From positions 1,641,693 through 1,705,692 of the forward strand of contig OZ245758.1 of assembly GCA_965227405.1 (NCBI GenBank): a stretch of DNA of 64,000 bases, in the 5' to 3' direction. The translations under genes and the position numbers were made by a program. Origin of the DNA: Polyangiales bacterium. Lineage in GTDB: Bacteria; Myxococcota_A; Polyangia; Polyangiales; Houyiibacteriaceae. The notes below the pieces were generated by a model. The model saw only the letters and a program-made list of their open reading frames with translations, was not told the origin of the DNA and did not search any database. The first letter of the stretch is position 1. Every line of letters starts with the position of its first letter. Shown piece after piece: positions 24,595-59,079 of this stretch.

Positions 24595-24675
24595 GCGGCT
24601 AGCGTCGCGAATCACTGAGTTTCTGGCATTGGTCGACTGCGCCGTTTCATTGACCGAACGCGCTATCGTGGGTGG

Positions 24676-25607
24676 GTGATAGCGCGGAGCGTCACCGAAC
24701 ACGTCATCGCCGTGGCCAAGGCTCATGGGGCCGGTGGCATGATCCAGCCCACCGGCGACCAGGTGGATGATGCCACCCACCTCAAGATCTGGGAGCAAGC
24801 CATTGCTCAAACCTCCCGCGACTTGCCGGTCCACTACGCGCGTGCGTGTGATGTGGATGGCTATGGCTTGCTCGGTCTAGCGTGCAAGACAGCACCTGAT
24901 CTGCGAACGGCCATCGAGCGCATGCTCACCTTCGTGCACATCGTGGCCTCGAGTGTGCAGGCTCGGTTGGATGGCCACACGCTGGTCGTCCAACGCGACG
25001 GCAACCCCGGACTGGGTCGAATGGCAGCCATCGAGTCCACGCTGGGCGAGATCTGGGTGACCATCGGCCAGATGACCGTCGAACCGGTTGCTCTGACGCG
25101 CGTTGAACTCGCCCACCCACCCTACGTGCAGCTGAACTCGCTCTTCGGATGTCCGGTCGAGCAGACCGATCGCAATGCTCTGGTGTTTGCTGACGATGCA
25201 CTCCGCACGCCCTGAAGCAGGCTGATTCTGCGATTTCTGCCTATTTTCTCGAGCAATTGCGTCCCTTGGCGAAACCTGAGACGTGGACCGAGCGAGTCGC
25301 ACAACAGCTCGAAACCGCATTTGCGCAGTCTGGAGGAGCATCCAGACCTGGGGTCGAGGATGTCGCTCGAGCGTTGGCCGTTTCACCGCGCACGTTGCAG
25401 CGTCATCTCCAAGAAGAGTCCTCTTCGTTTCGCACCGTCCTCGAACACACGCGTCTCACCATCGCCAAACGACTTCTGATCACACACGCCATCGGCGAGG
25501 TCGCATTCGCGCTCGGGTTCTCCGAAAGCAGCGCCTTTCATCGTTGGTTTCGAAAGTCGACAGGGATGACGCCGGGTGCGTTTCGCGATTCCTCCACGCT
25601 GGGATGA
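24676..25607 (+). pseudogene. AraC-family transcriptional regulator split by a frameshift (ligand-binding domain 24676..25215, HTH domain 25257..25607)
   Basis: the upstream ORF is an AraC-type N-domain; the downstream ORF has the AraC HTH (..GFSESSAFHRWFRKSTGMTPGAF); the reading frame changes by 1 nt between about 25194 and 25213. Confidence 0.5.
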
Positions 25608-32458: not shown

Positions 32459-33625
32459 GTGCGCAGTGAATGGACACTCGAGCCGGACCTCGCCTTTCTC
32501 AACCATGGATCGTTTGGCGCGTGTCCGCGTGAGGTGCTCGATCGTCAGACGGCGATTCGGGCGCAGATGGAGGTCTCGCCCGTTCGCTTCTTCGTGCGCG
32601 AACTCGAGCCCATGCTCGCCGAAGTTCGCGACCAAGTCGCTCGTTTCGTCGGCGCCGAGCCCACGAACATCGCGCTGATCCGAAACGCCACCGAAGGCGT
32701 CAACGCTGTACTTCGCTCGCACACGTTTGCAGCGGGGGACGAGATCCTCGTCACGAACCACGGATACAACGCGGTCGCCAACTGCGCGCGTTGGGTCTGC
32801 GAGCGCTTTGGCGCGGAACTGAAGGTCGCCGATGTGCCCTTCCCGATCGCCGACGAAGACCAAGTGGTGGAGGCCGTACTCGCGGGCGTCACCAACAAGA
32901 CAGCGCTCGTCATCGTGGATCACGTCACGAGTCCGACCGGCGTTGTGATGCCGGTGAAGCGCTTGGTCGACGAACTCACACAACGCGGGATCCACACGTT
33001 AGTCGACGGTGCGCACGGCCCTGGCATGTTGCCCTTGCAGCTCGAGTCACTCGGCGCGGCGTACTACACTGGCAACTTCCACAAGTGGGTGTGCGCGCCC
33101 AAAGGCGCAGCGTTTCTCTACGTCCGCGAAGACCGGCAAACCGGTTTGGTTCCGCCGGTGATCAGTCACGGCTACAACTCGCCACGAGATCGTTCTCCGT
33201 TTTTGGAGATGTTCGACTGGACCGGCACGGGCGATCCCAGCGCGATGCTCTCTGTGCCCGCTGCGTTGCGCTTCATGGAACGCTTTGGAACCTGGGAGTC
33301 GATTCGCGAACGGAACCGCGCCGTGCTTTTGGAAGCGCGCGACTTGCTCTGCGACGCCCTCGACGTTGCACCACCGGTACCCGACTCGATGCTGGGGTTC
33401 CTCGCTGCTCTGCCGATTCCCGATGGTGATGCAGGCCCACCCAAGAGTTCTCTCTACATGGATGCGCTGCAGATCGTGCTCTATGAGAAGCACCGCGTGG
33501 AAGTCCCGATCGTGCCCTGGCCTGCGCCACCCAAGCGGCTCGTGCGGATCAGCGCGCAGGTCTACAACGAACGAAGCGACTACGAACGACTCGTCCAAGG
33601 ATTGAAGGCAGAGCTATGGAGCTGA
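32459..33625 (+). CDS. class V aminotransferase (isopenicillin N epimerase / cysteine desulfurase-like)
   Basis: fold type I PLP motifs; PLP lysine context ..YYTGNFHKWVCAPKGAAFLY. Confidence 0.8.
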   Translation: MRSEWTLEPDLAFLNHGSFGACPREVLDRQTAIRAQMEVSPVRFFVRELEPMLAEVRDQVARFVGAEPTNIALIRNATEGVNAVLRSHTFAAGDEILVTNHGYNAVANCARWVCERFGAELKVADVPFPIADEDQVVEAVLAGVTNKTALVIVDHVTSPTGVVMPVKRLVDELTQRGIHTLVDGAHGPGMLPLQLESLGAAYYTGNFHKWVCAPKGAAFLYVREDRQTGLVPPVISHGYNSPRDRSPFLEMFDWTGTGDPSAMLSVPAALRFMERFGTWESIRERNRAVLLEARDLLCDALDVAPPVPDSMLGFLAALPIPDGDAGPPKSSLYMDALQIVLYEKHRVEVPIVPWPAPPKRLVRISAQVYNERSDYERLVQGLKAELWS

Positions 33626-35058
33626 TTCGCAACTGTGCGTACATCAACGGTGAGTGGACCGACACGAGTGCGGGCCGTTTCCCGGTGACCGACCCTGCGA
33701 CCGGTGACGTCATCACCGAGGTCTCACGTTGCGGGACCAACGACGTGCAACGCGCAATTCGATCGGCCGAACGCGCACTCCCGGCATGGCGAGCACTTCC
33801 GGCGGCCCATCGGGCTGCTGTGTTGCGTCGGTTCACCATGCTGATGGGCAAGCACGAGGATGAACTGGCTCAGCTGCTCACGCGCGAACAAGGCAAGCCG
33901 CTGAACGAAGCACGTGGAGAGATTCGCTACGCGGCATCGTTCACGGATTTCTACGCAGAAGAAGCCCGTCGCATCCACGGCGAGACGATCCCTTCGCCGG
34001 ATCCGCACTCCCGCATCGTGGTGTTGCGTCAGCCGATCGGAATCGGTGCAGGCATCACCCCGTGGAACTTCCCCTCGGCGATGATCACCCGAAAGCTTGC
34101 ACCTGCATTGGCTGCAGGGTGCACGTTCGTCCTCAAACCCGCTGAAGGCACGCCACTGAGTGCGCTAATTCTCGCGGGGCTACTTGAACTCGCTGGTGCA
34201 CCTCCCGGTGTGTTCAACGTTGTTCCCGGTGCTGCCGAAGATGCGGCCCCCATCGGCAAAGTCTTGTGCGACGACCCGCGTGTTCGCGCACTGAGTTTCA
34301 CCGGATCGACCGCGGTCGGAAAGCTGCTGCTCGGCCAATGTGCGTCGACCATCAAGAAGGTGAGCTTGGAGCTCGGCGGCAACGCTCCCTTCATCGTGTT
34401 CGAAGATGCGGACATCGAAGAAGCCGTGAAGGGCTGCATGGTCGCCAAGTTTCGAAATGCGGGGCAGACCTGCGTGGCAGCGAACCGCATCCTGGTGCAC
34501 GACAAGGTCTACGACGCGTTTCGCGATGAGCTCGCATCGCGAATCGGGCATCTCCAGGTCGGCAACGGCTTGGAAAGTGGCGTTACGATCGGACCGCTGA
34601 TCGATAGCGATGCGGTGGAGAAAGTCGAAGAGCACCTGCAGGACGCGCGCGACAAAGGCGGTTCGATCAAAGTGGGTGGCAACCGTCACGCGCTGGGTGG
34701 AACGTTCTTCGAACCCACGTTGGTCGAGAACGCGAGTGCCGACATGCTCATGGCTCGCGAAGAAACGTTTGGTCCGGTTGCGGCGCTTACGCGTTTCGAG
34801 AGCGAAGAGGATGCGATTCGCGTGGCGAACGACACGCCGATGGGACTGGCTGCGTATTTCTACTCACGCGACGTGGGTCGGGTGTGGCGCGTGAGCGAAG
34901 CCCTCGACTACGGCATGGTCGGTGTGAACACCGGCATGATGTCGACCGTGTTGGCACCCTTTGGTGGCGTGAAGGAAAGCGGCTTGGGGCGCGAGGGTTC
35001 GCGACACGGAATCGACGAGTGGACCGAGCTGAAGTACGTCCGAATGGCCGGGCTTTAG
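33616..35058 (+). CDS. gabD: NAD(P)-dependent succinate-semialdehyde dehydrogenase
   Basis: ALDH motifs GITPWNFP, LELGGNAP, catalytic Cys in GQTCVAANR, EETFGPV; overlaps the aminotransferase gene by 10 bp. Confidence 0.9.
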   Translation: MELIRNCAYINGEWTDTSAGRFPVTDPATGDVITEVSRCGTNDVQRAIRSAERALPAWRALPAAHRAAVLRRFTMLMGKHEDELAQLLTREQGKPLNEARGEIRYAASFTDFYAEEARRIHGETIPSPDPHSRIVVLRQPIGIGAGITPWNFPSAMITRKLAPALAAGCTFVLKPAEGTPLSALILAGLLELAGAPPGVFNVVPGAAEDAAPIGKVLCDDPRVRALSFTGSTAVGKLLLGQCASTIKKVSLELGGNAPFIVFEDADIEEAVKGCMVAKFRNAGQTCVAANRILVHDKVYDAFRDELASRIGHLQVGNGLESGVTIGPLIDSDAVEKVEEHLQDARDKGGSIKVGGNRHALGGTFFEPTLVENASADMLMAREETFGPVAALTRFESEEDAIRVANDTPMGLAAYFYSRDVGRVWRVSEALDYGMVGVNTGMMSTVLAPFGGVKESGLGREGSRHGIDEWTELKYVRMAGL

Positions 35059-35069: not shown

Positions 35070-37274
35070 CTAGTAGATGGGGTCTGGTTCGGGTGGCTCA
35101 CCGAGCGTCACCCAAAAACCAACGCGTTGGTCTGCCAGTTCGTGAATCGTCCATTGACGAACCGCTTCGGACAAACATGCGCGCAACGCGCGAAACTCCA
35201 CAGATCCTCCCATCGTCCGCGCGATCATGACTTCGCCGGCTTGGTCCACACGAAAGCTGATGTGCAGATCCGCGGCCGCTTGTGGGTCGGCGGTCAACAT
35301 CCGTCGAGCACATGCGTCGAGCGATTCGCGGTGCTCTGCCAAATATGGTTCAAGTGCGGGTTCCTCAAAAGCGAACGCGAAACTCAAGGGTTCTTCGGCA
35401 ACAGACTCGCCGATTTCCATCGGCAGCGGGGTCCACTCGCGCTCGGGCAACTCATCGACAACGACGAGCTGGTATCGATAGGTCCGGCCGAGCACGACCA
35501 TCGCGAGATCGGCAAGGTGTTGCACCGTCACGCCTTCGTGTGGCTTGACGAGCACCACGTAGTTCGTGACGTCGTGAACGCGTTGCTCCTCAATGCCCTC
35601 GGGAAACGGAAGGACTTCACCGGTCTCGAAATCTCGCACCTCGCGAACAGGTTCGGTTCCAAGCTCGACCGTGAGAAGGACGCTAAACAGCGCGTTGGGA
35701 TTGCAGGCGCCACGTGGCCACCACACTGAAAACGCACCAAGCGAGTCACGCAAGGCAATGTTCGAGAGTACCGGCAAGGGCTCTGATTGCGGCGGAGCGG
35801 GGGCGTCCATCCGTCGACCGACGAGAGTCACCGAACCGAACTGATGTAAGGCCCGAAGCAACGGACGGGCCTGGGTTCGAGCGTCGGCGATCGCGGTCAG
35901 AGGCCGGCCGCCACCGATCGCACAACCATCGATATACCCGCTCGGAGTGGCGAACCTGGCGGCCGTTCTGCGCGCTCGCCGTCGGAGTTCGGCAACCTCC
36001 TCGTCGCTGATGTCCTGAGACGGCCCGTATCGATTGGACGGCCTCTTTGTCGGCGGTGGCGTGCCCCTCGATCGCATTCCGTGTCCTGGCGATTCTTCAA
36101 CCTCGTGAAGCCAAGCCGGTTCATCTTCGACGATCTCTTCAAGGTACCGAGCGTGTTCCTCCTCTCGTCTTTGCTGCTCTGCTTCGACCGCGGCGAGAAC
36201 ATCGTCGACGGGCTCGCCACCGAGGGAAGCTGTGGCGTCCGCGTCAATAACAACCCAGGGTTCTCGACCGTAGTCGTCAGTGCGCACGAGCTGGAGGTCA
36301 TCGGTCCACGGCACTTCCGTCCACCGCTCGATCGTGTCCATGGTGGCGTTCGTCGTGACGCGATGGAGTACCAACGTCATGAGCAGCACCACGACAAGGC
36401 TGACCGTTTGGGCGACTCCCGTGCGACGAAGCGACTCTGCAGCAATCACGAGTGCACCGACGCCCGCCGCAGCCACTGCGATCAGACTCGCTTCGGCAAG
36501 GGCAGTCTCCCCCTGTGCCACGGTCTCGTAGATCTCGATTCTCGCGCGCGTGCTCACCTGAAGCGCCATCAAGAACCCTTCAGTTCGATTCTTCAGCAAC
36601 ACGACGGCGCAGGCTCCGATCATCGCCAGCACACCAGAGGTTGCCGCGCCGAACGCAGCTTCACGTCCCGCAGCAAAACCGAGTGACGCCGCAACAACCA
36701 CGGCGGCGAGTGCCACGAGACTTACGATTGGCGCCTCGGTAACGACCAGCGCCGGTCCAGCACATGCCAGCAGCCCACATGCAACGCCAAGAGCTGCGAG
36801 TGCCCGCTTGCGTTCGCCCTGCGAACGCACTGCGAGAACGACGGCAATCGCTCCAAGCAACCCCATCGATAGGAGCACCCCCAACCAAGCGATGTCGGCC
36901 GCGGACGCGTACCCGCGCAATGCCATTTCACCGTGCGACGACCAGTCTGCCTGCTCCAGTGCTTTCTCGGCGGCGCGCATGCGATACCGCATGCCTCCCA
37001 AGCCCGACAGCCATGGGAGAGTGCCTGTGAACACAATCAATGCTGCTGGGATGCGCCGTCCGTGACGCCTCAACCACAACAATACGCACGCGCCTGCCAA
37101 ACCAACTACACCTGCCGCGGCGATGACAACTCGCCATTCCGTGTAGACAATGCGCGAGCCGATATCGCTCAGAAGCGCGGTGAAGGCAGCAACGAGTGCG
37201 ACGGACAGAATCGGGAGCCCGACCTCAAGCCACGCGCTCTTGCGTTCGTGTTTGCGCTCTTCCCCCCGAGGCAT
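35070..37274 (-). CDS. polytopic membrane protein of unknown function, paralog A
   Basis: N-terminal ~330 aa with ~8 TM helices plus a ~400-aa acidic soluble domain; starts MPRGEERKHERK; collinear homology to the adjacent paralog. Confidence 0.65.
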   Translation of the reverse strand: MPRGEERKHERKSAWLEVGLPILSVALVAAFTALLSDIGSRIVYTEWRVVIAAAGVVGLAGACVLLWLRRHGRRIPAALIVFTGTLPWLSGLGGMRYRMRAAEKALEQADWSSHGEMALRGYASAADIAWLGVLLSMGLLGAIAVVLAVRSQGERKRALAALGVACGLLACAGPALVVTEAPIVSLVALAAVVVAASLGFAAGREAAFGAATSGVLAMIGACAVVLLKNRTEGFLMALQVSTRARIEIYETVAQGETALAEASLIAVAAAGVGALVIAAESLRRTGVAQTVSLVVVLLMTLVLHRVTTNATMDTIERWTEVPWTDDLQLVRTDDYGREPWVVIDADATASLGGEPVDDVLAAVEAEQQRREEEHARYLEEIVEDEPAWLHEVEESPGHGMRSRGTPPPTKRPSNRYGPSQDISDEEVAELRRRARRTAARFATPSGYIDGCAIGGGRPLTAIADARTQARPLLRALHQFGSVTLVGRRMDAPAPPQSEPLPVLSNIALRDSLGAFSVWWPRGACNPNALFSVLLTVELGTEPVREVRDFETGEVLPFPEGIEEQRVHDVTNYVVLVKPHEGVTVQHLADLAMVVLGRTYRYQLVVVDELPEREWTPLPMEIGESVAEEPLSFAFAFEEPALEPYLAEHRESLDACARRMLTADPQAAADLHISFRVDQAGEVMIARTMGGSVEFRALRACLSEAVRQWTIHELADQRVGFWVTLGEPPEPDPIY

Positions 37275-37302
37275 CCTGCGAGTCTACATGCCGACCCCGA
37301 AA

Positions 37303-39462
37303 CTACTCGCGGGGGGATTCCCCGAGTCGGACCCAAAAACTGAACCGCTGTTCGTGGTCGTTGGGACGAAATCGCCACTGCTTAACCGCGTCTGCCAAAC
37401 ACCCACGCAACGCACGGAGTTCCACCGCGCCACCGATTGTACGTGCCGATGACACCTCGCCGCTCGGCGCCACGCGAAAATAGATCGACATGGTACCTGC
37501 CAGTTCGCGGTCGAGTGACAGAGCGCGTCGTGCACATTGATCGAGCAGTTCGCGACTATCGGACATCCGATGGCGGAGTTCCGCACGCTCGCGTGGAGGA
37601 CCAAAGGTCAGCTGTTGTTCAGCCACGGACTCGTCGATGTCCGTAGGTAACGGAACAACGACTCGCTCGGGCAACTCGTCGACGAGCACGAGGCGATACT
37701 TGCCCGTTAGCGCCTGCAGGGGTGCAGCTAAATCGGCAAGATCCTGAATACTCGCGTCACCAGTCGACTCCACGAACATGATGAAGTAGGCGTTCGGCTG
37801 ATCGTCGCGCCGTTGTTCCAACCCATCTGGAAACGCCAACGTTTCGCCCGTCTCAAAGTCACGTACTTCACGAACCCGATCCGCGCCGAGTTGCACCGTG
37901 AGCAAGACATCATGCAGCGCGTTGGGTTCGCATTGGGTCCGTGGCCACCACACTGAGAACTGAGTCAACGAGTCGCGAAGGGCGATGTTCGACAAGATCG
38001 TGAGCGGTTCCGTATCTGGAAGAGGACGTGCCTCTCGGTAGCGACCCACCAACTCCACAGTCGCAAGTTCACCAAAGAGTTCGGGCAACGCGCGAGCCTT
38101 CGTTCGTGCGTCAACCACTGCAGCAACTCGTTCTCCCCCACCGATCGGACAGCCTTCGATTTCTTCCATAGGCCGCATTGAGGCTTGCTGAAGGCGGCGC
38201 GTCATCTCGCTCTCCTCATCGGGAGGCCGACCGATGGCGTGGCGGTTCGTGTTGTCTTCTGGTTCGAGCCACTCTGGCTCTTCCTCGTGAATGTACCCGG
38301 GTGGGTAGCCGTACTCCTCAAACTCGCGAGCACGGTCTTCGTGTCTTCGGCGTTGCTCCGCCCTCACCCTCGCAACGACATCATCGACCGGCTCGCCCTG
38401 AAACCAGACTTCTTCATTCTCCAGCACCACCAGCCATGGCTCCGATGCGTACTCGTCAGGAGTACGAGCGAATTCGAGAGTCTCCGGCCACGCATGGTTG
38501 GTCCAACCTTCGATCATCGACATGCTTGCGGCTGTGGAAACCCGATGCAGCGCCAACGTGATCAGGACGACGACAACAACGCTCACCGCACGCAACACCG
38601 GCGTTCGTCGAAGCGACTCTCCGCACAACACCAGCGCACCTACGCCCACCGCCGCGATCGCGATCCAGCTCGCCTGCAGTAGCGCTGTTTCGATCTCTGC
38701 AATCGTCTCGAAAATCTGCATCCTCGACTCCGCATCCACGCTGGCGACAACGCCAAATCCAGGGATACGACCTTCGAGTTGAGCAACGCCGCACGCCGCT
38801 GTTGTCGCAAGAAACCCCGCGGCCGCAGAACCAAACGCACTGGGTCGGCCTGCGCTGAGCCCGAATGACACCGCCGCAACGACAGATGCAAGCGCGACCA
38901 ACGCTGCGATCGGTGCTGTTGCAACTGCCAGTGCAGGCCCGACACATGCGATGACGCCACAGCCCACACCGAGCGCTACGAGAGTCTGGCCGCGATCGCC
39001 ATGTGCGCGAACCGCGATCACAACCGCGATGGATACCAACAGACCGCAAGAGAACAGCAGACCAAACCACGCGCTGCTACTCGCTTCGGCGTAACCGCAC
39101 AGCGCCATGATGCCGTGCATCGACCAGTCTGCGTGTTGCAACGCGCGGTCGACCATGCGCATGCCGAAGCGCATCCCGCCAAGCCCCGTAATCCAAGGAA
39201 GCGTGGCAACAAAGATCGTCAGCGCGACCGGAACGTTTCGTCCCTGGCGAGCCAGCCAAAGCAGAACACAAACGCCAGCGAGCCCACTGATCCCCGCAGC
39301 AGAGACGGCGTAAAACCACCAGCCCATGCTAGGAATGCGGTCGCGAAGTTCGTTTCCGAGCAGCAGCGCGAGTGCGAACACAACCGAGACCGACACCATC
39401 GGCAGAGCGATCTCGATCAGCGCGGCCTTTCGTTCGCGCGATTGCTTTTCCCCCCGCGGCAT
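37303..39462 (-). CDS. polytopic membrane protein of unknown function, paralog B
   Basis: same architecture as paralog A (MPRGEKQSRERK..; ..LSNIALRDSL..FSVWWPR..NPNAL..VREVRDFETGE..); 28-bp spacer to paralog A. Confidence 0.65.
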   Translation of the reverse strand: MPRGEKQSRERKAALIEIALPMVSVSVVFALALLLGNELRDRIPSMGWWFYAVSAAGISGLAGVCVLLWLARQGRNVPVALTIFVATLPWITGLGGMRFGMRMVDRALQHADWSMHGIMALCGYAEASSSAWFGLLFSCGLLVSIAVVIAVRAHGDRGQTLVALGVGCGVIACVGPALAVATAPIAALVALASVVAAVSFGLSAGRPSAFGSAAAGFLATTAACGVAQLEGRIPGFGVVASVDAESRMQIFETIAEIETALLQASWIAIAAVGVGALVLCGESLRRTPVLRAVSVVVVVLITLALHRVSTAASMSMIEGWTNHAWPETLEFARTPDEYASEPWLVVLENEEVWFQGEPVDDVVARVRAEQRRRHEDRAREFEEYGYPPGYIHEEEPEWLEPEDNTNRHAIGRPPDEESEMTRRLQQASMRPMEEIEGCPIGGGERVAAVVDARTKARALPELFGELATVELVGRYREARPLPDTEPLTILSNIALRDSLTQFSVWWPRTQCEPNALHDVLLTVQLGADRVREVRDFETGETLAFPDGLEQRRDDQPNAYFIMFVESTGDASIQDLADLAAPLQALTGKYRLVLVDELPERVVVPLPTDIDESVAEQQLTFGPPRERAELRHRMSDSRELLDQCARRALSLDRELAGTMSIYFRVAPSGEVSSARTIGGAVELRALRGCLADAVKQWRFRPNDHEQRFSFWVRLGESPRE

Positions 39463-39479
39463 TCCGCGAGTTTATACAG

Positions 39480-40211
39480 CTACACGCGTATTTCGGGAAT
39501 CGCTACGTTTGCAGGGCGAATCTGTAGGCGACGTCGAACATCGTCCAAATCGTCTTCCCACATGTCCTCAAAGCGAACGACCGGAAGAAACGCTGCTTCT
39601 GCACCTCGCTGAAACCCTTCCCACGCCGCAGCCACAACTTTGCGCGCATGTGGGGCCAAGCGAACGGTTCCGATCAACGTGAGCAAAGCAGAACTCGGCA
39701 TGCGCATTTGCGCGTAGCTAAACGCTTGGAGTGCGACCTCTCCCGCGACGTCGGTTTTGTATCCGGTGAGCACGTGCCAGATGTCGTGCGTCTGCCGAAC
39801 ACGCTGCGCGAGATACGCCGGAACCTCAGGCAGTCCGGGTGGTGCTTGAAAGAGATCGGGGTCCAGGTTCTCCGCATCAAGATAGCGAACATACGCACCA
39901 CCCAAGGTCGATGCCGGTAGTGCACGCAACGCATCGAAGTCGATGTGCTTGGAATCGATTGCGGGACGATCAACGAGCAGCTTGGAGCCTTCGGCGTCGC
40001 CTGCCATGCGTGCGAGGAAACGCTTCAAGTGCGGCGCGTTGAGAATGATGCCGAGTAGAAAAACTTGCTCGGTGTCGTTCGGATCTTGATGCAGCGCGCG
40101 CATTGCTCGGGTTGCGACCTGCACCTTCTCCCGCGGCGTCCCGTTGAGCGCAGTCCGAACAGCGTGGAGCTCGGGATTTTCGGTCGCTTCGAAATTCGCA
40201 TTCATTTCCAT
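39480..40211 (-). CDS. Coq4-family (ubiquinone biosynthesis protein COQ4-like) protein
   Basis: HDxxH-x11-E zinc-site motif THDIWHVLTGYKTDVAGE; 243 aa; 18 bp upstream of membrane paralog B. Confidence 0.6.
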   Translation of the reverse strand: MEMNANFEATENPELHAVRTALNGTPREKVQVATRAMRALHQDPNDTEQVFLLGIILNAPHLKRFLARMAGDAEGSKLLVDRPAIDSKHIDFDALRALPASTLGGAYVRYLDAENLDPDLFQAPPGLPEVPAYLAQRVRQTHDIWHVLTGYKTDVAGEVALQAFSYAQMRMPSSALLTLIGTVRLAPHARKVVAAAWEGFQRGAEAAFLPVVRFEDMWEDDLDDVRRRLQIRPANVAIPEIRV

Positions 40212-40219
40212 GGCTTCCT

Positions 40220-40274
40220 CTATTGTCAGAACTGATAATAACTCTGCTCAAGTTATTGTCAAGTCTGACAATAG
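40220..40274. promoter_or_regulatory. 55-bp imperfect palindrome, candidate TetR operator in the divergent promoter region
   Basis: perfect 11-bp inverted repeat CTATTGTCAGA (40220-40230) / TCTGACAATAG (40264-40274) with nested GATAATAAC / GTTATTGTC. Confidence 0.6.
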
Positions 40275-40289
40275 TGTTAGGTTCGACCC

Positions 40290-40910
40290 ATGGCGCGAGT
40301 CCGACGCACACCCGAGGAAGCGCGAGCTCTCATCCTGAAAGCGGCGCGCGAGATCCTCCTGCGCGAAGGACCTGCTCGTGTGCGCTTGAAGCAAGTCGCG
40401 AAACGCGCAGGCATCAGCCACGGGTTGATCACGCATTACTTCGGAACGATCGAAGGCTTGGTCGAAGAAACGTTCTCAACGTTCGTTCTCGAGATGCGAC
40501 GAGAGTGGATTCGTCGCTTCACGCAAGACGGACTCAACCTTCGAACGGGTGTCGAAGCGTTCTTCGAATCCCTCAGTCATCCGTTGTATGGGCGGTTGGT
40601 TGCGTGGGGGTTGCTAACGGGTCGTTTCGAAAAACCGGATGCGCCCTTGATGAACGATCAGGGCATTCGGCTGAGTGTCGATGCGGTGGAGGCACGTGTT
40701 CGCGAACGTGGTGGAGAGGTGAGCCGCGAGGATCTCGAGTACATGTTCCTGATCGTGATGACGAGCGCGGTGGGGTATCGGCTAGGACGCGTGCTGATGT
40801 GGAAGGGGCTCGGGCGCGAGCCGAGCGAAGAGCGGGATGCGGAGTTTCGGCGGCGGATCACGAAGATGATTCAGGCGTACTTGGATCTACCGGACGAGTT
40901 GGTGCGCTGA
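40290..40910 (+). CDS. TetR-family transcriptional regulator
   Basis: N-terminal TetR HTH ..ILKAAREILLREGPARVRLKQVAKRAGISHGLITHYF. Confidence 0.85.
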   Translation: MARVRRTPEEARALILKAAREILLREGPARVRLKQVAKRAGISHGLITHYFGTIEGLVEETFSTFVLEMRREWIRRFTQDGLNLRTGVEAFFESLSHPLYGRLVAWGLLTGRFEKPDAPLMNDQGIRLSVDAVEARVRERGGEVSREDLEYMFLIVMTSAVGYRLGRVLMWKGLGREPSEERDAEFRRRITKMIQAYLDLPDELVR

Positions 40911-40914
40911 GAAT

Positions 40915-41090
40915 CGAGGCGCTTCGCGGATCCGCAGGGAAGAATCGTCACAATTTGTTAGTGGGAGACGCGAGGCTAGGAGACCGGAGAGATAGATTTT
41001 CTCTGCGGACTCCGAGCCTCGCGTCTCCCACTAAATTAAGATCCCTCCCTCTGCGCCTCATAAAGATCTCCCTCTGCGTGTCCCTCAAAC
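40915..41090. repeat. intergenic repeat with a 20-bp perfect inverted repeat (hairpin element)
   Basis: TTAGTGGGAGACGCGAGGCT (from about 40961) pairs with AGCCTCGCGTCTCCCACTAA about 38 bp away; flanked by the partial core cgcttcgcggatccg. Confidence 0.7.
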
Positions 41091-41750
41091 TTTTGGCCAC
41101 GGTCTCCCCTCGAGTTGCTTCACCCGCTCGGCCGCTGCGTTCCACGCTTTGAAGGCGGCTTCTGCGGCGTCTCCTTCGAGCCGCATCGCCTGGTGTTCCA
41201 AGCGCGTTGCCTCTGCTGTCGCAGCTTGCCGCGCGGAGTCACGCTCTGTCGTTAGCGCCTTGAGGTAACGCGCGAAGCGGTCGGCGTCGGTGGGGAGAGG
41301 TCGGAACATCGCCGCATCGGGGTCGAAGTCTTCGCTCGTGAACCACACCCAATCACGAAGCAGGTTGTCGCACCACCGCTCCAGCTTGCCCTCGCCCCGC
41401 GACGAACCATCCGAGTCGTCAAACCAATGCACGGTGGGTTCCCGGTCTAACGCGTCGACGAGGTATCCCATCGAGTGCCGGTCTTCGACCAACACGAAAA
41501 CATGTGCATCGCCGTAGGGCTTTTCTGCCCCAAGTACGAACGCAGCCTCCAGATTGGGATGAACAAAGTACGACGAGTACTTCGCGACTGAACACGCCTG
41601 CGCCAACGCTCGCACGCCTTCGTATGCATCCGGAAACGGATCCTTCGGCTCCCCTTCGAGCTCGAAGGCAATCGCACCAGCAAGTACGCGCGCAGCCCAC
41701 GGCGTGTTGTAGGACACGCACGCGATGCTCTCGACGCTCAGCAAGCTCAT
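41085..41750 (-). CDS. hypothetical protein
   Basis: 221-aa ORF with balanced composition; no motif recognised. Confidence 0.45.
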   Translation of the reverse strand: MSLLSVESIACVSYNTPWAARVLAGAIAFELEGEPKDPFPDAYEGVRALAQACSVAKYSSYFVHPNLEAAFVLGAEKPYGDAHVFVLVEDRHSMGYLVDALDREPTVHWFDDSDGSSRGEGKLERWCDNLLRDWVWFTSEDFDPDAAMFRPLPTDADRFARYLKALTTERDSARQAATAEATRLEHQAMRLEGDAAEAAFKAWNAAAERVKQLEGRPWPKV

Positions 41751-41769
41751 GGTCCGAGCTTACTGGATG

Positions 41770-42144
41770 TCAGATGACGGGGAGTCCGCGCGCTTCGCAG
41801 TCGTGCTTCAGGATCACGCTCTTGGGTACGTCGCCCAATCCCAACTTGCTCGAAAGATGACGCGCGGCAGCACGCACCTCGAGTTTGGTGGGAACGTGGG
41901 TGGACGTCTCACGGCTACGACAGCGCGCTTCCGCGAGTTTCCATGCAGCAGGTGCGAGTCCGCCAGAGTCCTCGAGGAGACGGGCATACCCGCCATCTTC
42001 GGAAACCAACTTCAGCAGCCATTCGATGGGTCGCATCTCATACCTCCATACGACCGGTTGTGGCGCGACCTTTAGGGATTGGTGGGCGCGCTCATTACTA
42101 AGACGTGCAAAGCGCGCTTCAAAGTCAAAGAAACGGACGAACAC
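41770..42144 (-). CDS. hypothetical small protein (uncertain)
   Basis: 124-aa ORF directly upstream of and on the same strand as 41085..41750. Confidence 0.3.
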   Translation of the reverse strand: MFVRFFDFEARFARLSNERAHQSLKVAPQPVVWRYEMRPIEWLLKLVSEDGGYARLLEDSGGLAPAAWKLAEARCRSRETSTHVPTKLEVRAAARHLSSKLGLGDVPKSVILKHDCEARGLPVI

Positions 42145-42278: not shown

Positions 42279-45200
42279 GTGCTTCCCCTCGAGAAGGTCC
42301 GCGAGAAGCTCTCCCCCGCCGATCGAGCGATGACGATCGAGGACGTGTCCGCTTCGTTGATGGACGAAGAGGTGGCGTACGCGCTCGCATACTTGGCCAA
42401 CTACGTCGAAGCGAAAACCCTCGGCGACTTGTTGTCGAGTGAACGCGCGCTGCATGTGTTTGGGCAGGCGCTTCGTCGGGATACGCAACAACGCGTGCTC
42501 CATGCACTCGACGAGTGGGCGCTAAGTGAAACACGTGTCCGCTGGCGTTGGCCGATCCAACCCTCGCCGATGGTGCCTGCTCCGCCCGAGAGTTTGAGTG
42601 CGCTGCGCAAGTGGGTGAAGAAGCACGACATCGAAGCGTTCCTCGGCGCGTTCGGGCAGAAGGTTCGTCCTTTTGCGCCTTCGGGCTACTTCATCGACAC
42701 CAACGAGTTGGTGACCGTCGAAGACATCTTGTGGCGACGCGGACCGGTCTCGACGCTCTCGCGCGCCGTCGCAGATCGTTATGCCATCGCTGCGCGCTCG
42801 TTTCTGCACTACCGAGCACGGCGACATGCGTTGGTCGTCAAACGTCGCGAGCTCTGGCAAAGCCGCCCGCATTCTCGTGCACTTCGCTTGTTTGCGAGTC
42901 GGATGCGCGAAGCCTTCGATCTCCTGGATCCGAGTTCGGACGACCCGGTCTTTCTGAGCGGCGATGAGCATCTCGTCCTGAACGACGCACCTCCCTCCAT
43001 CTCCGTGCGCATGCGCGGTGCACCCAGCACTACCGTTCGCATCGAGTTCATGGGTTTCGAAACGGCGCCGGTTCGTCTTACAACCGCGCGCGCGATGCCG
43101 ATCGAGCGCGCTCCAGAAGTTCGCGCCTTGGTCGAATGGACGCGCGACATCGTCCACGACATCCAGCATCCGCTCCACGAGACGCTCGAACGCGTGTTGT
43201 CCAAGCCCACGTGGATGTTCGTGGTGGACGCGTTGGCCAAAGGCCTCGAAGAATCCGAGGACAAGCCCTCCCGTGAGCAACGGTTGCTTTGGCGAATCGA
43301 AGAGACGAGTTCCGATCGCAAGTTTCGCGTGGATGCGATTGTTCAAAAGCGTCTCAAGTCTGGAAAGTGGAGCAAGGGTGCTCGCACAGCGGTCAACAAG
43401 ATTCCGGTCGAAGCACTGGGACCGGCTGACCACCTCATCTACGACGAGGCATCCAAAGCCGAAGATCGCTTTCCCGTGAACTACGACTCGGTATTGCTGG
43501 CGTTGGTGGGCCATCCGCGCGTGGAGCACGAAGGTCGGCGCATTTCGATCCACCAAAGTCAGCCCACGCTGGCGCTCACGCCAGCCGACGGTGGCGTGCA
43601 CGTGGAACTGCGCCTGCTCAACACCGTGTTTGATCCCGACGACATGGACGAGCGTGTCCACACGGCATGGGACGACGATCGACTGCACCTCACCGTCCTG
43701 GATCAACGCACGCTCGGGGTGATGCGAACGCTCGCTGGTTTTGGTGGTGTCCTTCCGCCCGAAAGCTACGACCGCATTCTTGAACTGCTGGCCCGGCTCC
43801 AACCGAACATCCAACTTCAGCTTCCGACGGCGTTGCGGGGCGATGCGAAAGCGGGGCCAAGCCCACTGGTTGTTCGCTTGGATCCGGATGACCGCGCGCT
43901 TGCGCTGAGCCTTCGCTTTCGACCCTTTGGTGCGAACGGTGGTTCGTGGCCGGCGGGTTCAGGACCGCGCATCGTGTACGGCACCAAGAAGGGCAAGCGC
44001 ATGCACGTGCAGCGCGATCTGCTGGACGAACAAAAGCAGGTACGCGCACTTCAAGACGCGTTGGGGCTCGATCAACTCGACACACGCATCACCGACTTGC
44101 CGCGTGCACTGGGGATCTTGGATCAGCTGGAGCAACGCGCGGCCCGCAAAGAGCTGATCACCGAGTGGCCGCGCGGTCGAAAGTGGAAGCTGCTTGGTAC
44201 GGCAACGAGCAGCGCGCTCAAAGTACAGGTCCAACGCGCGGGGGATTGGTTTGGCGTGGAAGGCTACGCCGAACTGGATGGCGTGAAGGTCCCTCTTTCG
44301 TCGTTGCTCAAGGCGGTTCGTCGAAACGAAGAGTGGGTGCAAGTCGCGCCCGGTCGGTTTGCCAAGATCGCCGACGGCCTGCGTGATCGACTGGGCAGTG
44401 CAGACGACGTGTTGGTCGAACACAAAGGCGAAATCGTCACCGGTGTTGCTGCGGTCTCCGAAGTCAAAGCGTTGGTCGACGAGGGCAACCTCGAAGCAGA
44501 CGACGGATGGCTCGACGTGTTGGATCGGATGGAACGCGCCAGCGAACTCGACCCCGAGTTGCCCGACGAACTCGATGCCGAACTTCGCGAGTACCAAACC
44601 GAAGGGTTTGTGTGGCTTGCGCGTTTGGCTGAGTGGGGCGCCGGCGCGTGTCTCGCCGACGAGATGGGCTTGGGCAAAACGGTGCAAGCCTTAGCGATGT
44701 TGTTGCGTCGAAGCGAGCTTGGACCCGCGCTTGTGGTCGCGCCGACGTCCGTCGGTGCAACGTGGCGTTCGGAAGCCAAGCGTTTCGCGCCCGAACTCAA
44801 CATCCGCAACTACCGCGGGCCGAAGCGAGCATCGCAACTCACCAAGCTCGGAAAACGCGATGTTGTCGTGACGAGTTACGACATTCTCGCGCGCGATGGC
44901 GAGGTGCTGGCTAACCAGGACTTCGCGACGTTCATTCTTGATGAAGCGCAAGCGATCAAAAACGCACGCACCAAGCGAGCGAAAGCAGCACGCGGAATCC
45001 AAGCACAGTGGCGATTGGCGCTGACCGGCACGCCACTGGAAAACCACCTTGGCGAGCTATGGAGTTTGTTCCGCGTGGTGTCCCCAGGATTGCTGGGCAC
45101 GTGGCCACACTTTCGCGAGCGCTTTGCGAGTCCGATCGAGCGCGATGGCATCGAAGAGCGGCAGCAAGCGCTCGCCCAGAAACTTCATCCCTTCTTGCTG

Positions 45201-45953
45201 CGACGAACAAAATCCGCGGTTGCACAAGAGCTTCCGCCTCGAACCGAGGTACTGCGCCCGGTCGAGTTTTCTGAGCACGAACTGGCGATCTACAACGCGG
45301 CTCGACAGGAAGCACTGGACGGTTTGGTCGCGTCCAAGCTCGAGAAGAAGCGCTTTGAGGTTCTTGCTGCGCTAACGCGTTTGCGTTTGTTGGCTTGTCA
45401 TCCGCGTTTGGTCGATCCGACGTCGACGCTCAAGTCGTCCAAGGTGAGCAGCCTGTTGGAGTTGATCGACGATCTTCGTCGCGAAGGTCACCGCACGTTG
45501 GTGTTCAGCCAGTTTGTGTCGTTGCTGGATATTGTGCGCGAGGAACTCGACGCAAAGGGAATCGACCCACTCTACTTGGTGGGTTCAACACCGGCAGAGC
45601 AACGCGAGCGTTTGGTGGACCAGTGGCAAGAGGGTGAAGACCCCGTGTTCCTCATCTCGCTCAAGGCCGGAGGAACGGGACTGACGCTGACCGGTGCGGA
45701 TACCGTGATTCATCTGGATCCCTGGTGGAACCCAGCGGTGGAAGACCAAGCGTCAGACCGTGCGCACCGCATCGGGCAAGAGAAGCCGGTCACGGTGGTG
45801 CGACTGGTCACGCAGGGAACGATCGAAGAGTCTGTGCTGCGTTTGCACGATGAGAAGCGTGCGTTGGTGGATGGCGTCCTGGAGGGAAGCGGTGCTGCAG
45901 GGTCACTGAGTGCGGAGGAGCTGGTGGCGCTAATCCGGGGGGAAAGCGACTAG
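42279..45953 (+). CDS. SNF2-family helicase with long N-terminal SNF2-associated region
   Basis: SNF2_N motifs ..LREYQTEGFVWL.., DEMGLGKTVQALA, ILDEAQAIKN; helicase-C motifs LISLKAGGTGLTLTGADTVIHLDPWWNPAVEDQASDRAHRIGQ. Confidence 0.85.
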   Translation: MLPLEKVREKLSPADRAMTIEDVSASLMDEEVAYALAYLANYVEAKTLGDLLSSERALHVFGQALRRDTQQRVLHALDEWALSETRVRWRWPIQPSPMVPAPPESLSALRKWVKKHDIEAFLGAFGQKVRPFAPSGYFIDTNELVTVEDILWRRGPVSTLSRAVADRYAIAARSFLHYRARRHALVVKRRELWQSRPHSRALRLFASRMREAFDLLDPSSDDPVFLSGDEHLVLNDAPPSISVRMRGAPSTTVRIEFMGFETAPVRLTTARAMPIERAPEVRALVEWTRDIVHDIQHPLHETLERVLSKPTWMFVVDALAKGLEESEDKPSREQRLLWRIEETSSDRKFRVDAIVQKRLKSGKWSKGARTAVNKIPVEALGPADHLIYDEASKAEDRFPVNYDSVLLALVGHPRVEHEGRRISIHQSQPTLALTPADGGVHVELRLLNTVFDPDDMDERVHTAWDDDRLHLTVLDQRTLGVMRTLAGFGGVLPPESYDRILELLARLQPNIQLQLPTALRGDAKAGPSPLVVRLDPDDRALALSLRFRPFGANGGSWPAGSGPRIVYGTKKGKRMHVQRDLLDEQKQVRALQDALGLDQLDTRITDLPRALGILDQLEQRAARKELITEWPRGRKWKLLGTATSSALKVQVQRAGDWFGVEGYAELDGVKVPLSSLLKAVRRNEEWVQVAPGRFAKIADGLRDRLGSADDVLVEHKGEIVTGVAAVSEVKALVDEGNLEADDGWLDVLDRMERASELDPELPDELDAELREYQTEGFVWLARLAEWGAGACLADEMGLGKTVQALAMLLRRSELGPALVVAPTSVGATWRSEAKRFAPELNIRNYRGPKRASQLTKLGKRDVVVTSYDILARDGEVLANQDFATFILDEAQAIKNARTKRAKAARGIQAQWRLALTGTPLENHLGELWSLFRVVSPGLLGTWPHFRERFASPIERDGIEERQQALAQKLHPFLLRRTKSAVAQELPPRTEVLRPVEFSEHELAIYNAARQEALDGLVASKLEKKRFEVLAALTRLRLLACHPRLVDPTSTLKSSKVSSLLELIDDLRREGHRTLVFSQFVSLLDIVREELDAKGIDPLYLVGSTPAEQRERLVDQWQEGEDPVFLISLKAGGTGLTLTGADTVIHLDPWWNPAVEDQASDRAHRIGQEKPVTVVRLVTQGTIEESVLRLHDEKRALVDGVLEGSGAAGSLSAEELVALIRGESD

Positions 45954-47055: not shown

Positions 47056-47709
47056 CTAGAGGGGACAGCCTCCGGCACACGCCTCGGCGACCAGAGTGAT
47101 GAACACGGCGTCTTCACTGCCGCGCACTTCCAAGAGATCTTCGACTTCCCCGTCACGGCCATCGAACGTGACGATCACATCAAGACCACCATCACCGGCG
47201 CTCATCCCGGTTACCGACAAGCCTTGGTCGCCGCGTACAAGCGCAGGTGCCATCAGCATCTCCGCGCACACCGGCTGAGCAGGAAAACGGATTGCGGTTT
47301 CTTCACCCGGCTCGCCTTCGATGCGCATGAACGTTTCGGGCACCGTGGGTCGGCACACCCCCGAAAGTGCGCCGACAACCACGCTGAAGTCGAACACGTC
47401 GGAACGAAGTCGCTCGTTGATCGCTTGCAAGCGAACCGTCAACGCGCCCGGCAACTCAAAACGAAAGCTGCCATCCTCGTTCGTCGGAATACGAACCGGT
47501 GCATCCGTGCTGCCGAAGATGGTGGTTTGGATGTCCACACCACCCGGATCAACCGCGCCTGCGCTGCCCTGCACGATGAGCAAACCCGCACCGCCTTCGA
47601 TCAACTCCACGCGTTCCGGATCCAGGTCGGGCTGCAGCGGAGGGTTGCCAGTTTCGGTGCCCACACAGGCCAGCGAGACCACGAAAAGCATGCAAAGTAA
47701 GGGTTTCAT
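47056..47709 (-). CDS. lipoprotein, hypothetical
   Basis: lipobox MKPLLCMLFVVSLACVG; 4-bp overlap with the upstream gene. Confidence 0.55.
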   Translation of the reverse strand: MKPLLCMLFVVSLACVGTETGNPPLQPDLDPERVELIEGGAGLLIVQGSAGAVDPGGVDIQTTIFGSTDAPVRIPTNEDGSFRFELPGALTVRLQAINERLRSDVFDFSVVVGALSGVCRPTVPETFMRIEGEPGEETAIRFPAQPVCAEMLMAPALVRGDQGLSVTGMSAGDGGLDVIVTFDGRDGEVEDLLEVRGSEDAVFITLVAEACAGGCPL

Positions 47710-48539
47710 GACGTCTCATCGCCTTTAGAGAGAGGGAAGAGCTGAAAGTTAATCTGGATGACCTGGGTCGGATTTTCAGAGTCTTCTTCGAGAGCAAGAA
47801 GCGACCCGCGCAGGTCGCGAAGCTGGCTTTTGATCTCTTGGAGACGACCCGGATCCACGCAAAGCGTCAAAGATGAGATGTCGCGTTCTGCCGCGGGCAC
47901 GAGATCGATCGCTTCGGCAGCACGGCGCATCATTACGCGGTGGTACTCGCCGATGTGCACCCACTTGGTTTGCGGCCCCGTCGACACGATCGAATCGCTG
48001 GGTCGAATCTGGCCATCGACTTCTTTCAGCATGCCGAGTTCTTCGAGAATGCGAAGCGCACGAGCGGCATCGCTCTTGGAGATCGCCGGAACCATCTGAC
48101 CCGCGATCCAAGCTGCGTCGGCGCGAAAGTCTTTGCGTCGCGCCAACTCACGCACCGCGGGAATGAACCACTCGCTGTGGTATGCGGCATGTGCGAGATC
48201 GAGTTTTTGAGCTTTGCGAAAGCTGCGGTGACTCGACAGGTCGCGATAGCGTTGTGCGCGCTCTGACGAAGTCTTGGCTTGGTTGAACGCCACCAGGTGC
48301 TCAAAGAAACGCAGCCCTTCCCCGTCCAAGCCGCATGCCTTTCCAAAGCGCTGCGCCATTGCCGGGGTGAGGTTGCGGTCGCCATCGATGACCAGCTTCA
48401 AGTAGTTGGGCGACTTGAGTCCGGCGCGACGAGCGAACGCGCGATACGAAAACCGACCGCCCGCTTTCTTGAGGTCGTAATACGCGCGAAGAAACTCGCG
48501 GTAGTCGAGGAACTCAAAGACTTCGAGCGGCGCGCCCAT
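47706..48539 (-). CDS. TIGR02147-like (Fibrobacter/myxobacterial paralogous family) putative DNA-binding protein
   Basis: N-terminus ..FLDYREFLRAYYDLKKAGGRFSYRAFARRAGLKSPNYLKLVIDGDRNLT resembles that family as I recall it. Confidence 0.6.
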   Translation of the reverse strand: MGAPLEVFEFLDYREFLRAYYDLKKAGGRFSYRAFARRAGLKSPNYLKLVIDGDRNLTPAMAQRFGKACGLDGEGLRFFEHLVAFNQAKTSSERAQRYRDLSSHRSFRKAQKLDLAHAAYHSEWFIPAVRELARRKDFRADAAWIAGQMVPAISKSDAARALRILEELGMLKEVDGQIRPSDSIVSTGPQTKWVHIGEYHRVMMRRAAEAIDLVPAAERDISSLTLCVDPGRLQEIKSQLRDLRGSLLALEEDSENPTQVIQINFQLFPLSKGDETS

Positions 48540-59068: not shown

Positions 59069-59079
59069 GGAACTGACTG

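Follow-up and report, generated by a model that had tools for sequence, protein, structure and literature searches.

The locus at positions 35070 to 40910 raises the question of whether a Coq4-like gene and the two large membrane-protein genes that follow it form one functional system or two units that have come to lie side by side. In the window (the whole 64,000-nucleotide stretch of DNA analysed), three ORFs are present on the minus strand, i.e. the gene for a Coq4-family protein at 39480..40211 (243 aa; 241 aa in the public gene call), that for large paralog A at 37303..39462 (719 aa), and that for large paralog B at 35070..37274 (734 aa). Paralog A starts 18 nt after the Coq4 stop codon and paralog B starts 28 nt after that of paralog A, and the 3' end of paralog B converges on an aldehyde dehydrogenase gene located 11 nt away. 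A gene for a TetR-family repressor (206 aa; 40290..40910, plus strand) is divergent from the Coq4 gene, with a palindrome in between. These ORF coordinates bear out the layout described in a first-pass annotation of the locus, and the boundaries of both large proteins are identical in the public gene calls of the 9,074,070-bp source contig. As argued below, we favour the view that two units, each with an evolutionary history of its own, are joined in this locus, namely a TetR–Coq4 switch and the tandem membrane paralogs.

The large ORFs are genuine genes. Compared with their 96%-identical orthologues in locus L001, paralogs A and B gave dN/dS values of 0.15 and 0.38, respectively, which indicate that both are under purifying selection. 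These values, together with conservation in at least four lineages, ruled out a pseudogene or a spurious ORF. Neither tRNA genes nor Rfam RNAs were found in the 64-kb window, and the PADLOC models for defence systems matched none of the Coq4, TetR, paralog A, and paralog B proteins.

The Coq4 protein matched Pfam PF05019 with E = 5.8e-43 and 147.2 bits (cut-off, 22.9) over profile positions 11–220 of 221, and an alignment of 13 bacterial homologues shows no variation in the metal-site motif H141-D142-x-x-H145-x11-E157, so that the original assignment to this family holds on HMM comparison. Relatives of known structure include 3msq_A (E = 1.6e-18) and 6e12_A (Alr8543; E = 7e-17). Neither a signal peptide nor a membrane helix was identified in the protein. 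The closest relatives are labelled Polyangiaceae, and all share 60% identity or less, except for those on three metagenomic contigs. Such proteins had been described as unusual in bacteria, a statement that does not stand: 383 homologues were obtained in a protein search and 409 of the 462 pattern-matched stretches in a search of species genomes encode a Coq4 relative, with Myxococcota-type records throughout among the 80 matches listed. The family had already been reported to be widespread in proteobacteria and cyanobacteria (PMC5714133).

The TetR protein carries the TetR_N domain (PF00440; E = 6.7e-12; 45.4 bits, cut-off 24). With phmmer and tblastn, an orthologous TetR gene was found next to Coq4, in divergent orientation, in 73 of the 85 loci examined, and clustering by BLAST places a TetR gene beside Coq4 in 80 of 81 loci, where it is the sole recurrent neighbour. 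The gene downstream of Coq4 varies in the 77 Coq4 loci analysed outside the clade of the window. Judged from these comparisons of gene neighbourhoods, TetR–Coq4 is a two-gene unit that is widespread in Polyangia-type Myxococcota.

The palindrome between the two genes has arms of 24 nt each (40220–40243 and 40251–40274; 88% complementary). Its location agrees with that of the 55-bp palindromic operator reported previously; it is not a single operator, however, but resolves into two 20-bp palindromic sites of the form TATTGTCA-N4-TGACAATA, 33 bp apart. Operator O1 (40254..40273, TATTGTCAAGTCTGACAATA) matches this form perfectly and operator O2 (40221..40240, TATTGTCAGAACTGATAATA) matches it at 15 of 16 positions; the 64-kb window contains no further match, and none was found in 100 shuffles. 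A sigma-70-like promoter for the Coq4 unit (TTGACA, 16 nt, TATTAT; 40235..40262, minus strand; 11 of 12 consensus positions) lies within the two operators. On the minus strand, the right half of O1 contributes the -35 hexamer TTGACA (40262..40257) and the first six bases of O2 are the -10 hexamer TATTAT (40240..40235). This is the sole promoter-like site detected on the minus strand between 34900 and 41200 in a consensus scan. The distance from the end of O1 to the TetR start codon is 16 bp.

The same arrangement recurs across loci. At least one operator site is present in all 71 non-redundant TetR–Coq4 intergenic regions, against 7 sites in 1420 trials with shuffled intergenic regions; at least two sites occur in 68 of the 71 loci, with the 33-bp spacing retained in 51 of these 68, and the TTGACA/TAT promoter arrangement is shared by 60 of the 71. 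The earlier proposal of TetR control is much strengthened by this conservation, which suggests the following mechanism. The repressor would bind the two operators, one covering the -35 and the other the -10 element. Since both sites lie less than 70 bp from the TetR start codon as well, binding would block transcription of Coq4 and probably that of the TetR gene itself. By analogy with other members of the TetR family, a small ligand would release the repressor. The locus thus resembles the TetR–tetA, QacR–qacA, and AcrR–acrAB pairs in having divergent repressor and target genes, palindromic operators over the target promoter, and two sites, whereas a Coq4-family enzyme takes the place of the efflux pump as the target here. 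It also differs from these classical switches in its 20-bp operator, repeated at a fixed 33-bp distance that places TTGACA at -35 and TATxxT at -10, and conserved across a whole bacterial class.

The two large proteins share 50% identity over their full length (586 bits by BLASTP) and do not differ in domain architecture, and the blocks LSNIALRDSL, FSVWWPR, and VREVRDFETGE are present in both. Over the C-terminal 408 residues, acidic side chains predominate (77 D+E vs 48 K+R). Paralogy, shared blocks, and the acidic soluble part had all been correctly described; the number of membrane helices, previously given as about eight, is nine according to both hydropathy and an AlphaFold2 (AF2) model. 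This model of paralog A, built from 39 sequences, reached a pLDDT of 88.4 and a pTM of 0.83, whereas a whole-protein model from 4 sequences (pLDDT 51) was left out of the fold comparison. The nine helices form a membrane domain at residues 14–311 of paralog A (38530..39423, minus strand). The cytoplasmic loops contain 11 K+R in 37 residues and the periplasmic loops 6 in 75 residues, which places the N-terminus inside. Helix 3 carries the family motif LPWxxGLxG at its periplasmic end, and P77, P88, G92, and G133 are invariant in the membrane domain (in alignments and AF2 models, the numbering is that of the protein minus 1). No conserved acidic residue was found in the membrane in the family alignment.

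About 60 representative proteins of 640–960 aa combine the membrane domain with the tail. The two large proteins belong, as divergent members, to a Myxococcota family that has no name. The first-pass annotation had recognized no characterized family in them, and this remains true of the membrane domain, for which comparison with solved structures returned no counterpart. Foldseek matches to a pore-forming toxin and to an ABC exporter were rejected (probability 0.3 or less). The Pfam model Trp_oprn_chp scored 24.6 bits on paralog B, below its cut-off of 29.6, and was absent from paralog A at E ≤ 1; the match most likely reflects the composition of the Ala/Gly/Leu-rich helices. A BlaR1-like zinc protease was also rejected, as HExxH is absent from both paralogs. 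In a metagenome scan for the membrane domain, none of 564 pattern-matched stretches was confirmed by tblastn.

Two other parts of the large proteins resemble known domains. Residues 445–594 of paralog A (37681..38130, minus strand) form two periplasmic alpha/beta domains, modelled with a pLDDT of approximately 90, and Cys438, which belongs to an IEGC motif just upstream, forms a conserved pair with Cys511. One of these domains appears to have a TolR-like fold: 89 columns of the model align with E. coli TolR (5by4) in Foldseek with a probability of 0.92 and a TM score of 0.51. The family segment A-D-x-R-V-x3-L-x6-A-G-x3-V-x-L-x-G also resembles the C-terminal strand–helix–strand of TolR/ExbD. 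The likeness is one of fold, seen by Foldseek only, as hhalign of the middle domain against TolR and ExbD gave a probability of 1.1% and the profile of this domain matched nothing significantly in the PDB. In contrast to TolR and ExbD, the domain forms an internal part of a larger protein and is not accompanied by a single membrane helix bearing the essential aspartate.

The C-terminal 90–100 residues (627–713 of paralog A; 37324..37584, minus strand) are TonB-C-like. NF033768, the model for the AgmX/PglI C-terminal domain (cut-off, 40 bits), matches 36 of 39 family members; relatives score 90–154 bits, whereas paralogs A and B score 39.5 and 27.5 bits (E = 2.5e-6 for paralog B), respectively. 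The tail profile returned 15 matches in the PDB, all of them TonB (best E = 2.2e-5), and Foldseek matched the tail to 9dc4_T (probability 0.99, TM score 0.60) and 7zc8_B (probability 0.95), whereas Pfam TonB_C reached only E = 0.16 on the single sequence. Cys643 and Cys688 are conserved as a pair and form a probable disulfide. In the clade of the window, the tail is degenerate and lacks the terminal YPF strand motif; binding to the partner may thus have changed.

Whether the two units belong together can be judged from their distribution. The earlier interpretation was that of one lipid- or quinone-related membrane system. In a system of this kind, the large proteins would supply, retain, or export the lipophilic compound that Coq4 uses or makes. 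The 18- and 28-nt spacers behind a single promoter-like site are consistent with such a system, as is the activity of eukaryotic COQ4, which works at the membrane on a lipid substrate (PMC10680789). Adjacency of Coq4 and a large gene is moreover kept, at a spacing of 18–21 nt, in three diverged lineages whose large proteins share approximately 40% identity, and such persistent tight spacing could reflect selection for co-expression. Pairing is, however, confined to a narrow clade, i.e. the window and loci L001, L002, and L003–5. No member of the large family occurs in the other 77 Coq4 loci analysed, and seven distant family members lie in unrelated contexts, with neither Coq4 nor TetR nearby. 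In the syntenic locus L089, the large gene directly follows a conserved 88-aa gene without the TetR–Coq4 module; loss of the module from L089 is equally conceivable, and the event may have run in either direction. The periplasmic TonB-C-like and TolR-like domains also suggest contacts within the envelope rather than a part in lipid chemistry, and Coq4 would be cytoplasmic, whereas most of the large protein would be periplasmic. We consequently regard a joint system as unlikely and a composite origin as the better account of the locus. In this lineage only, the paralogs are probably read from the TetR-controlled promoter, given the short spacers and the lack, in consensus scans, of a promoter or convincing terminator belonging to the paralogs themselves. 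This would be co-regulation by juxtaposition and not evidence of a shared pathway; tight operon-like spacing in one genome is weak evidence of the latter.

Two further explanations concern the units separately. In Myxococcus, GltG and GltJ couple a proton-driven motor to the gliding complex, and a single N-terminal helix docks TonB, GltG, or GltJ into the motor. The paralogs might likewise be true TonB-type transducers, coupling a proton-driven motor of the ExbBD/TolQR/AglRQS type, encoded elsewhere, to a receptor in the outer membrane or a gliding-type complex. They share with TonB, GltG (PglI), and GltJ (AgmX) a C-terminal domain homologous to TonB-C and predicted to be periplasmic, which resembles the AgmX/PglI subtype of GltG and GltJ and has two conserved cysteines, and they contain a putative TolR-like fold besides. 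These features have to be set against an anchor of nine helices instead of one docking helix, the additional alpha/beta domains, and the lack of a conserved acidic residue in the membrane. Only about 30 residues (model 383–414; acidic/charged) are disordered in a compact model that is otherwise folded and contains no long proline-rich spacer with which to cross the periplasm. Furthermore, no ExbB, ExbD, TolQ, or TolR gene was present among the annotated neighbours in the window and 10 related loci, and the GltG and GltJ models (NF033760 and NF033761 were tested) match over the tail only, far below their cut-offs (16.4 bits against 650 for the GltG equivalog). A transducer role of this kind is thus as improbable as the joint system. 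Still less likely, in our judgement, is that Coq4 performs a step in the synthesis of ubiquinone or another benzoquinone for respiration, with TetR merely tuning supply. The full-length match and intact metal site would fit this role, and homologues are named 'ubiquinone biosynthesis protein COQ4' in the sources; yet, across 81 loci, Coq4 has no recurrent neighbour from a quinone pathway, nor did the scan of its neighbours in the window show another such gene, and a ligand-released repressor would be more typical of inducible detoxification, catabolism, or specialized metabolism than of a housekeeping cofactor. By genome annotation, the ubiquinone pathway is predicted only in Pseudomonadota and one class of Desulfobacterota (PMC13386864). 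As it is not predicted in Myxococcota, the substrate of Coq4 here is probably other than a ubiquinone precursor.

What the TetR–Coq4 switch does can be proposed by comparison with eukaryotic COQ4, which carries out an oxidative C1 decarboxylation (PMC10680789). By this analogy, the protein would most likely catalyse an O2-dependent oxidative decarboxylation or hydroxylation of a lipophilic 4-hydroxybenzoate-type compound. It resembles eukaryotic COQ4 and the bacterial proteins Alr8543 (Nostoc; PDB 6e12) and 3msq in its full-length PF05019 match, HDxxH-x11-E motif, size (approximately 240 aa), and solubility, but it differs in occurring in a phylum without a predicted ubiquinone pathway, in being accompanied by a conserved pair of operators and a TetR gene in divergent orientation, and in having no other coq or ubi gene nearby. 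We tentatively suggest, at somewhat less than even odds, that, in bacteria whose sole quinone is menaquinone, the class-wide module endows Coq4 with a function induced by a ligand and unconnected with ubiquinone, e.g. the conversion or detoxification of prenylated or alkylated hydroxybenzoates, possibly from proteobacterial prey.

The paralogs, in turn, appear to be fast-evolving inner-membrane proteins with a compact, acidic periplasmic part. As envelope proteins, they would use the TonB-C-like domain to grip a periplasmic or outer-membrane partner via beta-strand pairing. The nine-helix domain, which has no conserved acidic residue in the membrane and is thus not expected to be an ion-driven motor, would serve as an anchor or a sensor. 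A protein combining nine helices with TolR-like and TonB-C-like domains may represent a new kind of self-contained envelope connector, which in this clade may have come under the control of the Coq4 switch, thereby tying remodelling of the envelope to the same lipophilic signal.

In view of these results, hundreds of Myxococcota genomes probably carry a misleading annotation in the name 'ubiquinone biosynthesis protein COQ4'. As the operator and promoter of the TetR–Coq4 unit are precisely defined and deeply conserved, a search for the ligand and an assay of the enzyme are within direct reach; these could reveal chemistry of the Coq4 fold beyond ubiquinone synthesis, with relevance for the mechanism of human COQ4. 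The large proteins merit definition as a family comprising the nine-helix domain, the alpha/beta domains, and the AgmX/PglI-type tail; this polytopic, TonB-C-tailed family constitutes an unexplored architecture beside the periplasm-spanning proteins TonB, TolA, and GltG. If true, a role of Coq4 other than in ubiquinone synthesis would extend the chemistry known for a family that includes a human disease gene.

The cassette comprises three minus-strand genes, separated by spacers of 18 and 28 nt, which encode a 243-aa Coq4 protein (39480..40211), large paralog A (37303..39462; 719 aa) and large paralog B (35070..37274; 734 aa), together with a divergent TetR gene on the plus strand (40290..40910; 206 aa). 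These ORFs agree with the layout described in the first-pass annotation, and the limits of both large proteins are identical in the public gene calls for the 9,074,070-bp source contig (NCBI/ENA). The two large proteins are paralogs, as had been claimed: they share 50% identity from end to end, and the sequence blocks quoted in that annotation are found in both. The dN/dS values of 0.15 and 0.38 obtained for paralogs A and B, respectively, against the orthologues from L001, a metagenomic contig with 96% identity, indicate that both copies are under selective maintenance. The large proteins have evolved much faster than their neighbour, with 38–42% identity between the window and the related locus L002 as opposed to 79% for Coq4, but their dN/dS is still well below 1. 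The tandem duplication also took along ~10 nt of leader (39463..39479 and 37275..37302, minus strand), which reads ACTCGCGGA-ATGCCGCGGGGGGA before paralog A and ACTCGCAGG-ATGCCTCGGGGGGA before paralog B.

The 243-aa protein belongs to the Coq4 family, as shown by a full-length match to Pfam PF05019 (147 bits), and the motif H141-D142-x-x-H145-x11-E157, recognized in the first reading, is unchanged throughout 13 bacterial homologues. Two bacterial relatives have solved structures (3msq and 6e12). Such a protein had been considered unusual in bacteria, a view that does not hold: a protein search returned 383 matches, 409 stretches coding for a relative turned up when one genome was scanned for each species, and homologues have already been noted in proteobacteria and cyanobacteria (PMC5714133). 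Among the matches listed (80 of the 409), all are labelled Myxococcota, delta-proteobacteria or similar, including Polyangiaceae, Sandaracinaceae, Kofleriaceae, Labilithrix, and Haliangiales. An orthologous TetR gene is divergent from and adjacent to Coq4 in 73 of the 85 loci fetched (phmmer/tblastn), and all-against-all clustering of neighbours places a TetR gene beside Coq4 in 80 of 81 loci. Apart from TetR, no gene family is specifically recurrent beside Coq4 in this clustering; the next cluster, NtrC-like regulators (31 loci), represents a very large paralogous family. The TetR–Coq4 pair is thus a widespread, self-contained module. Although the Coq4 family itself is known, its regulatory and taxonomic setting here is undescribed, and a full-text literature search pairing Coq4 with Myxococc* returned nothing relevant.

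The palindromic repeat noticed between Coq4 and TetR is real (40220-40243/40251-40274; arms of 24 nt with 88% complementarity), and the 55-bp region can now be split into two 20-bp palindromes of the form TATTGTCA-N4-TGACAATA, located at 40254-40273 (16/16 match) and 40221-40240 (15/16 match). The window holds just these two matches, whereas none was found in 100 shuffles. When sites were counted at a threshold of at least 12/16 in 71 non-redundant TetR–Coq4 intergenic regions, at least one site was present in all 71 and at least two in 68, with a start-to-start spacing of exactly 33 bp in 51 regions; shuffled intergenic regions gave 7 single sites per 1420 trials. The central spacer is 3 nt instead of 4 nt in 23 of the 141 sites, namely in loci L070–L084, labelled Kofleriaceae, Haliangiales, and similar (e.g. 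TATTTTCA-CGT-TGACAATA), suggesting that the repressor and its site evolved together. A consensus scan of the Coq4 strand found one strong sigma-70-like promoter (40262..40235, minus strand; TTGACA, 16 nt, TATTAT; 11/12), in which the -35 element coincides with the right half of the first operator while the second operator begins with the -10 element, an arrangement repeated in 60 of the 71 loci. The TetR protein would bind the operator pair and obstruct RNA polymerase, and a ligand would free it from the operators. The nearer operator stops 16 bp ahead of the TetR ATG, which points to probable autoregulation. This regulator/operator design is the same in kind as that of classical TetR systems.

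In eukaryotes, COQ4 oxidatively decarboxylates the ring precursor of ubiquinone at C1 (PMC10680789). According to a 2026 quinone-pathway survey, the ubiquinone pathway occurs in Pseudomonadota and is convincing elsewhere only in one Desulfobacterota class (PMC13386864). Across the 81 loci, neighbour clustering detected no other quinone genes next to Coq4, and a repressor released by a ligand is better suited to controlling an inducible reaction than a housekeeping one. These three considerations suggest that the protein encoded here probably performs a Coq4-type oxidative decarboxylation of some lipophilic, hydroxybenzoate-like compound other than a ubiquinone precursor.

Close relatives of the large proteins are very scarce, forming three clusters in 5.8 billion proteins, and an exhaustive profile search added a fourth full-length orthologue, P0129. 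Profile searches also revealed ~60 representative proteins (640–960 aa) sharing both the N-terminal membrane domain and the C-terminal stretch, as well as hundreds of small proteins that match the tail alone. The tail of these relatives qualifies clearly as both an AgmX/PglI C-terminal domain (NF033768 in 36 of 39 members; 91–154 bits in examples) and a TonB_C domain, and the models of the gliding proteins GltG (PglI) and GltJ (AgmX) align with them over the tail alone. The two tails of the window clade score 39.5 and 27.5 bits against NF033768 (cut-off, 40), and judging from sequence the AgmX/PglI tail is degraded in this clade. All 15 matches of the tail profile in the PDB are TonB C-terminal domains (best E=2.2e-5).

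The AlphaFold2 model, built from a 39-sequence alignment (pTM 0.83, pLDDT 88.4; model numbering is protein minus 1), predicts nine membrane helices with helical extensions reaching the periplasmic side, followed by a short beta element, a charged helix (361-382), and a disordered acidic stretch of ~30 residues. Two alpha/beta domains (444-504 and 518-593) and the TonB-C-like domain (626-712) complete the model. The architecture of membrane helices plus a soluble domain proposed in the first reading was retained, but its count of ~8 helices becomes nine in the model. In a Foldseek search of the PDB, local regions of the model aligned with high probability to TonB C-terminal domains (0.99 and 0.95) and to TolR (0.92, TM 0.51); since sequence profiles gave no confirmation of the TolR link, we call it a fold resemblance only. 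Foldseek found no credible PDB counterpart for the membrane domain. The positive-inside count (11 K+R per 37 cytoplasmic-loop residues vs 6 per 75 periplasmic-loop residues) and the presence of four conserved cysteines on the outside both support a topology with a cytoplasmic N-terminus and an external C-terminus. The family alignment contains no conserved acidic residues in the membrane; conservation falls on Pro, Gly, Trp, and Arg, among them those of an LPWxxGLxG motif. No motor genes lie beside the large gene in any locus examined. The earlier statement that the paralogs belong to no characterized family therefore holds for the membrane domain in the libraries searched but not for the tail, which is TonB-C-like and probably of the AgmX/PglI type: the large proteins join a known tail to an undescribed nine-helix domain. 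A term search of a recent review of force transducers in the periplasm did not return this architecture.

Upstream of the cassette, an 88-aa gene (~41770..42036, minus strand; MRPIEWLL..., no Pfam match) is divergent from a 1224-aa SNF2 helicase (42279..45953, plus strand) with matches to the PADLOC models for DpdE (677 bits) and ZorD (394 bits); no further Dpd or Zorya genes were found among the neighbours scanned. The two genes remain adjacent in the related loci L002, L003, and L089. The interval between the 88-aa gene and the large gene varies (window, 40911..41770; L002, 8565..8567; L003, 6998..8482; L089, 7962..8001). This slot carries a 221-aa ORF (41085..41750, minus strand; no Pfam match) plus TetR–Coq4 in the window, TetR–Coq4 alone in L002, and RtcB plus TetR–Coq4 in L003, and it is empty in L089. 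On the other side, two genes (32459..35058, plus strand; 10-nt overlap), for a class-V aminotransferase and for an aldehyde dehydrogenase, run head-on towards paralog B, whose stop codon is only 11 nt from theirs, and this synteny holds in L001–L005. Elsewhere in the window, a PSCyt3/PSD2 (DUF1588/DUF1585) protein gene adjoins one for a DUF1501 protein (57380..60330, plus strand), a pairing best known in Planctomycetes-type genomes. Genes for a DUF4423 protein (47706..48539, minus strand), a WGR-domain protein (22089..23648, plus strand), a fatty-acid desaturase (23560..24834, minus strand), and a Ser/Thr kinase (17937..19472, minus strand) are also present; no tRNA or Rfam RNA genes were detected across the 64 kb.

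The first-pass annotation had suggested that Coq4 and the membrane paralogs make up one lipid- or quinone-related membrane system. The tight spacing between Coq4 and the large gene, kept in three lineages, speaks for such a unit, but the pairing is confined to the window, its near-twin L001, and the lineages L002 and L003–L005, which also share a syntenic order of SNF2 helicase, 88-aa gene, cassette, aldehyde dehydrogenase, aminotransferase, and peptidase; the duplication of the large gene is limited to the window and L001. The remaining Coq4 loci analysed contain no member of the large-protein family, even by a family HMM search, and seven distant family members have unrelated neighbours, each set different. 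Moreover, L089 encodes a full-length large-protein orthologue in window-type synteny but has neither TetR nor Coq4, the 88-aa gene being followed after 38 nt by the large gene. A single system is accordingly improbable. Most simply, the arrangement can be read as a joining of module and large gene by insertion, or their parting by deletion, at a variable spot.

The large genes of the window clade showed no promoter-like site of their own in the consensus scan, and terminator-like hairpins were not in excess (9 vs 6.1 ± 2.6 in shuffles), so that the large genes are probably co-transcribed with Coq4. Co-transcription would be co-regulation, not evidence for a shared pathway. The original observation was thus confirmed and its interpretation supported in part, and we file the locus as known kinds of element in a new form rather than as a new system. 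The TetR–Coq4 module represents a class-wide and testable predicted switch, complete with a defined operator, among bacteria not expected to make ubiquinone, and the large proteins represent an uncharacterized polytopic family with a TonB-C-like tail, for which a confident model is available and which is likewise testable.
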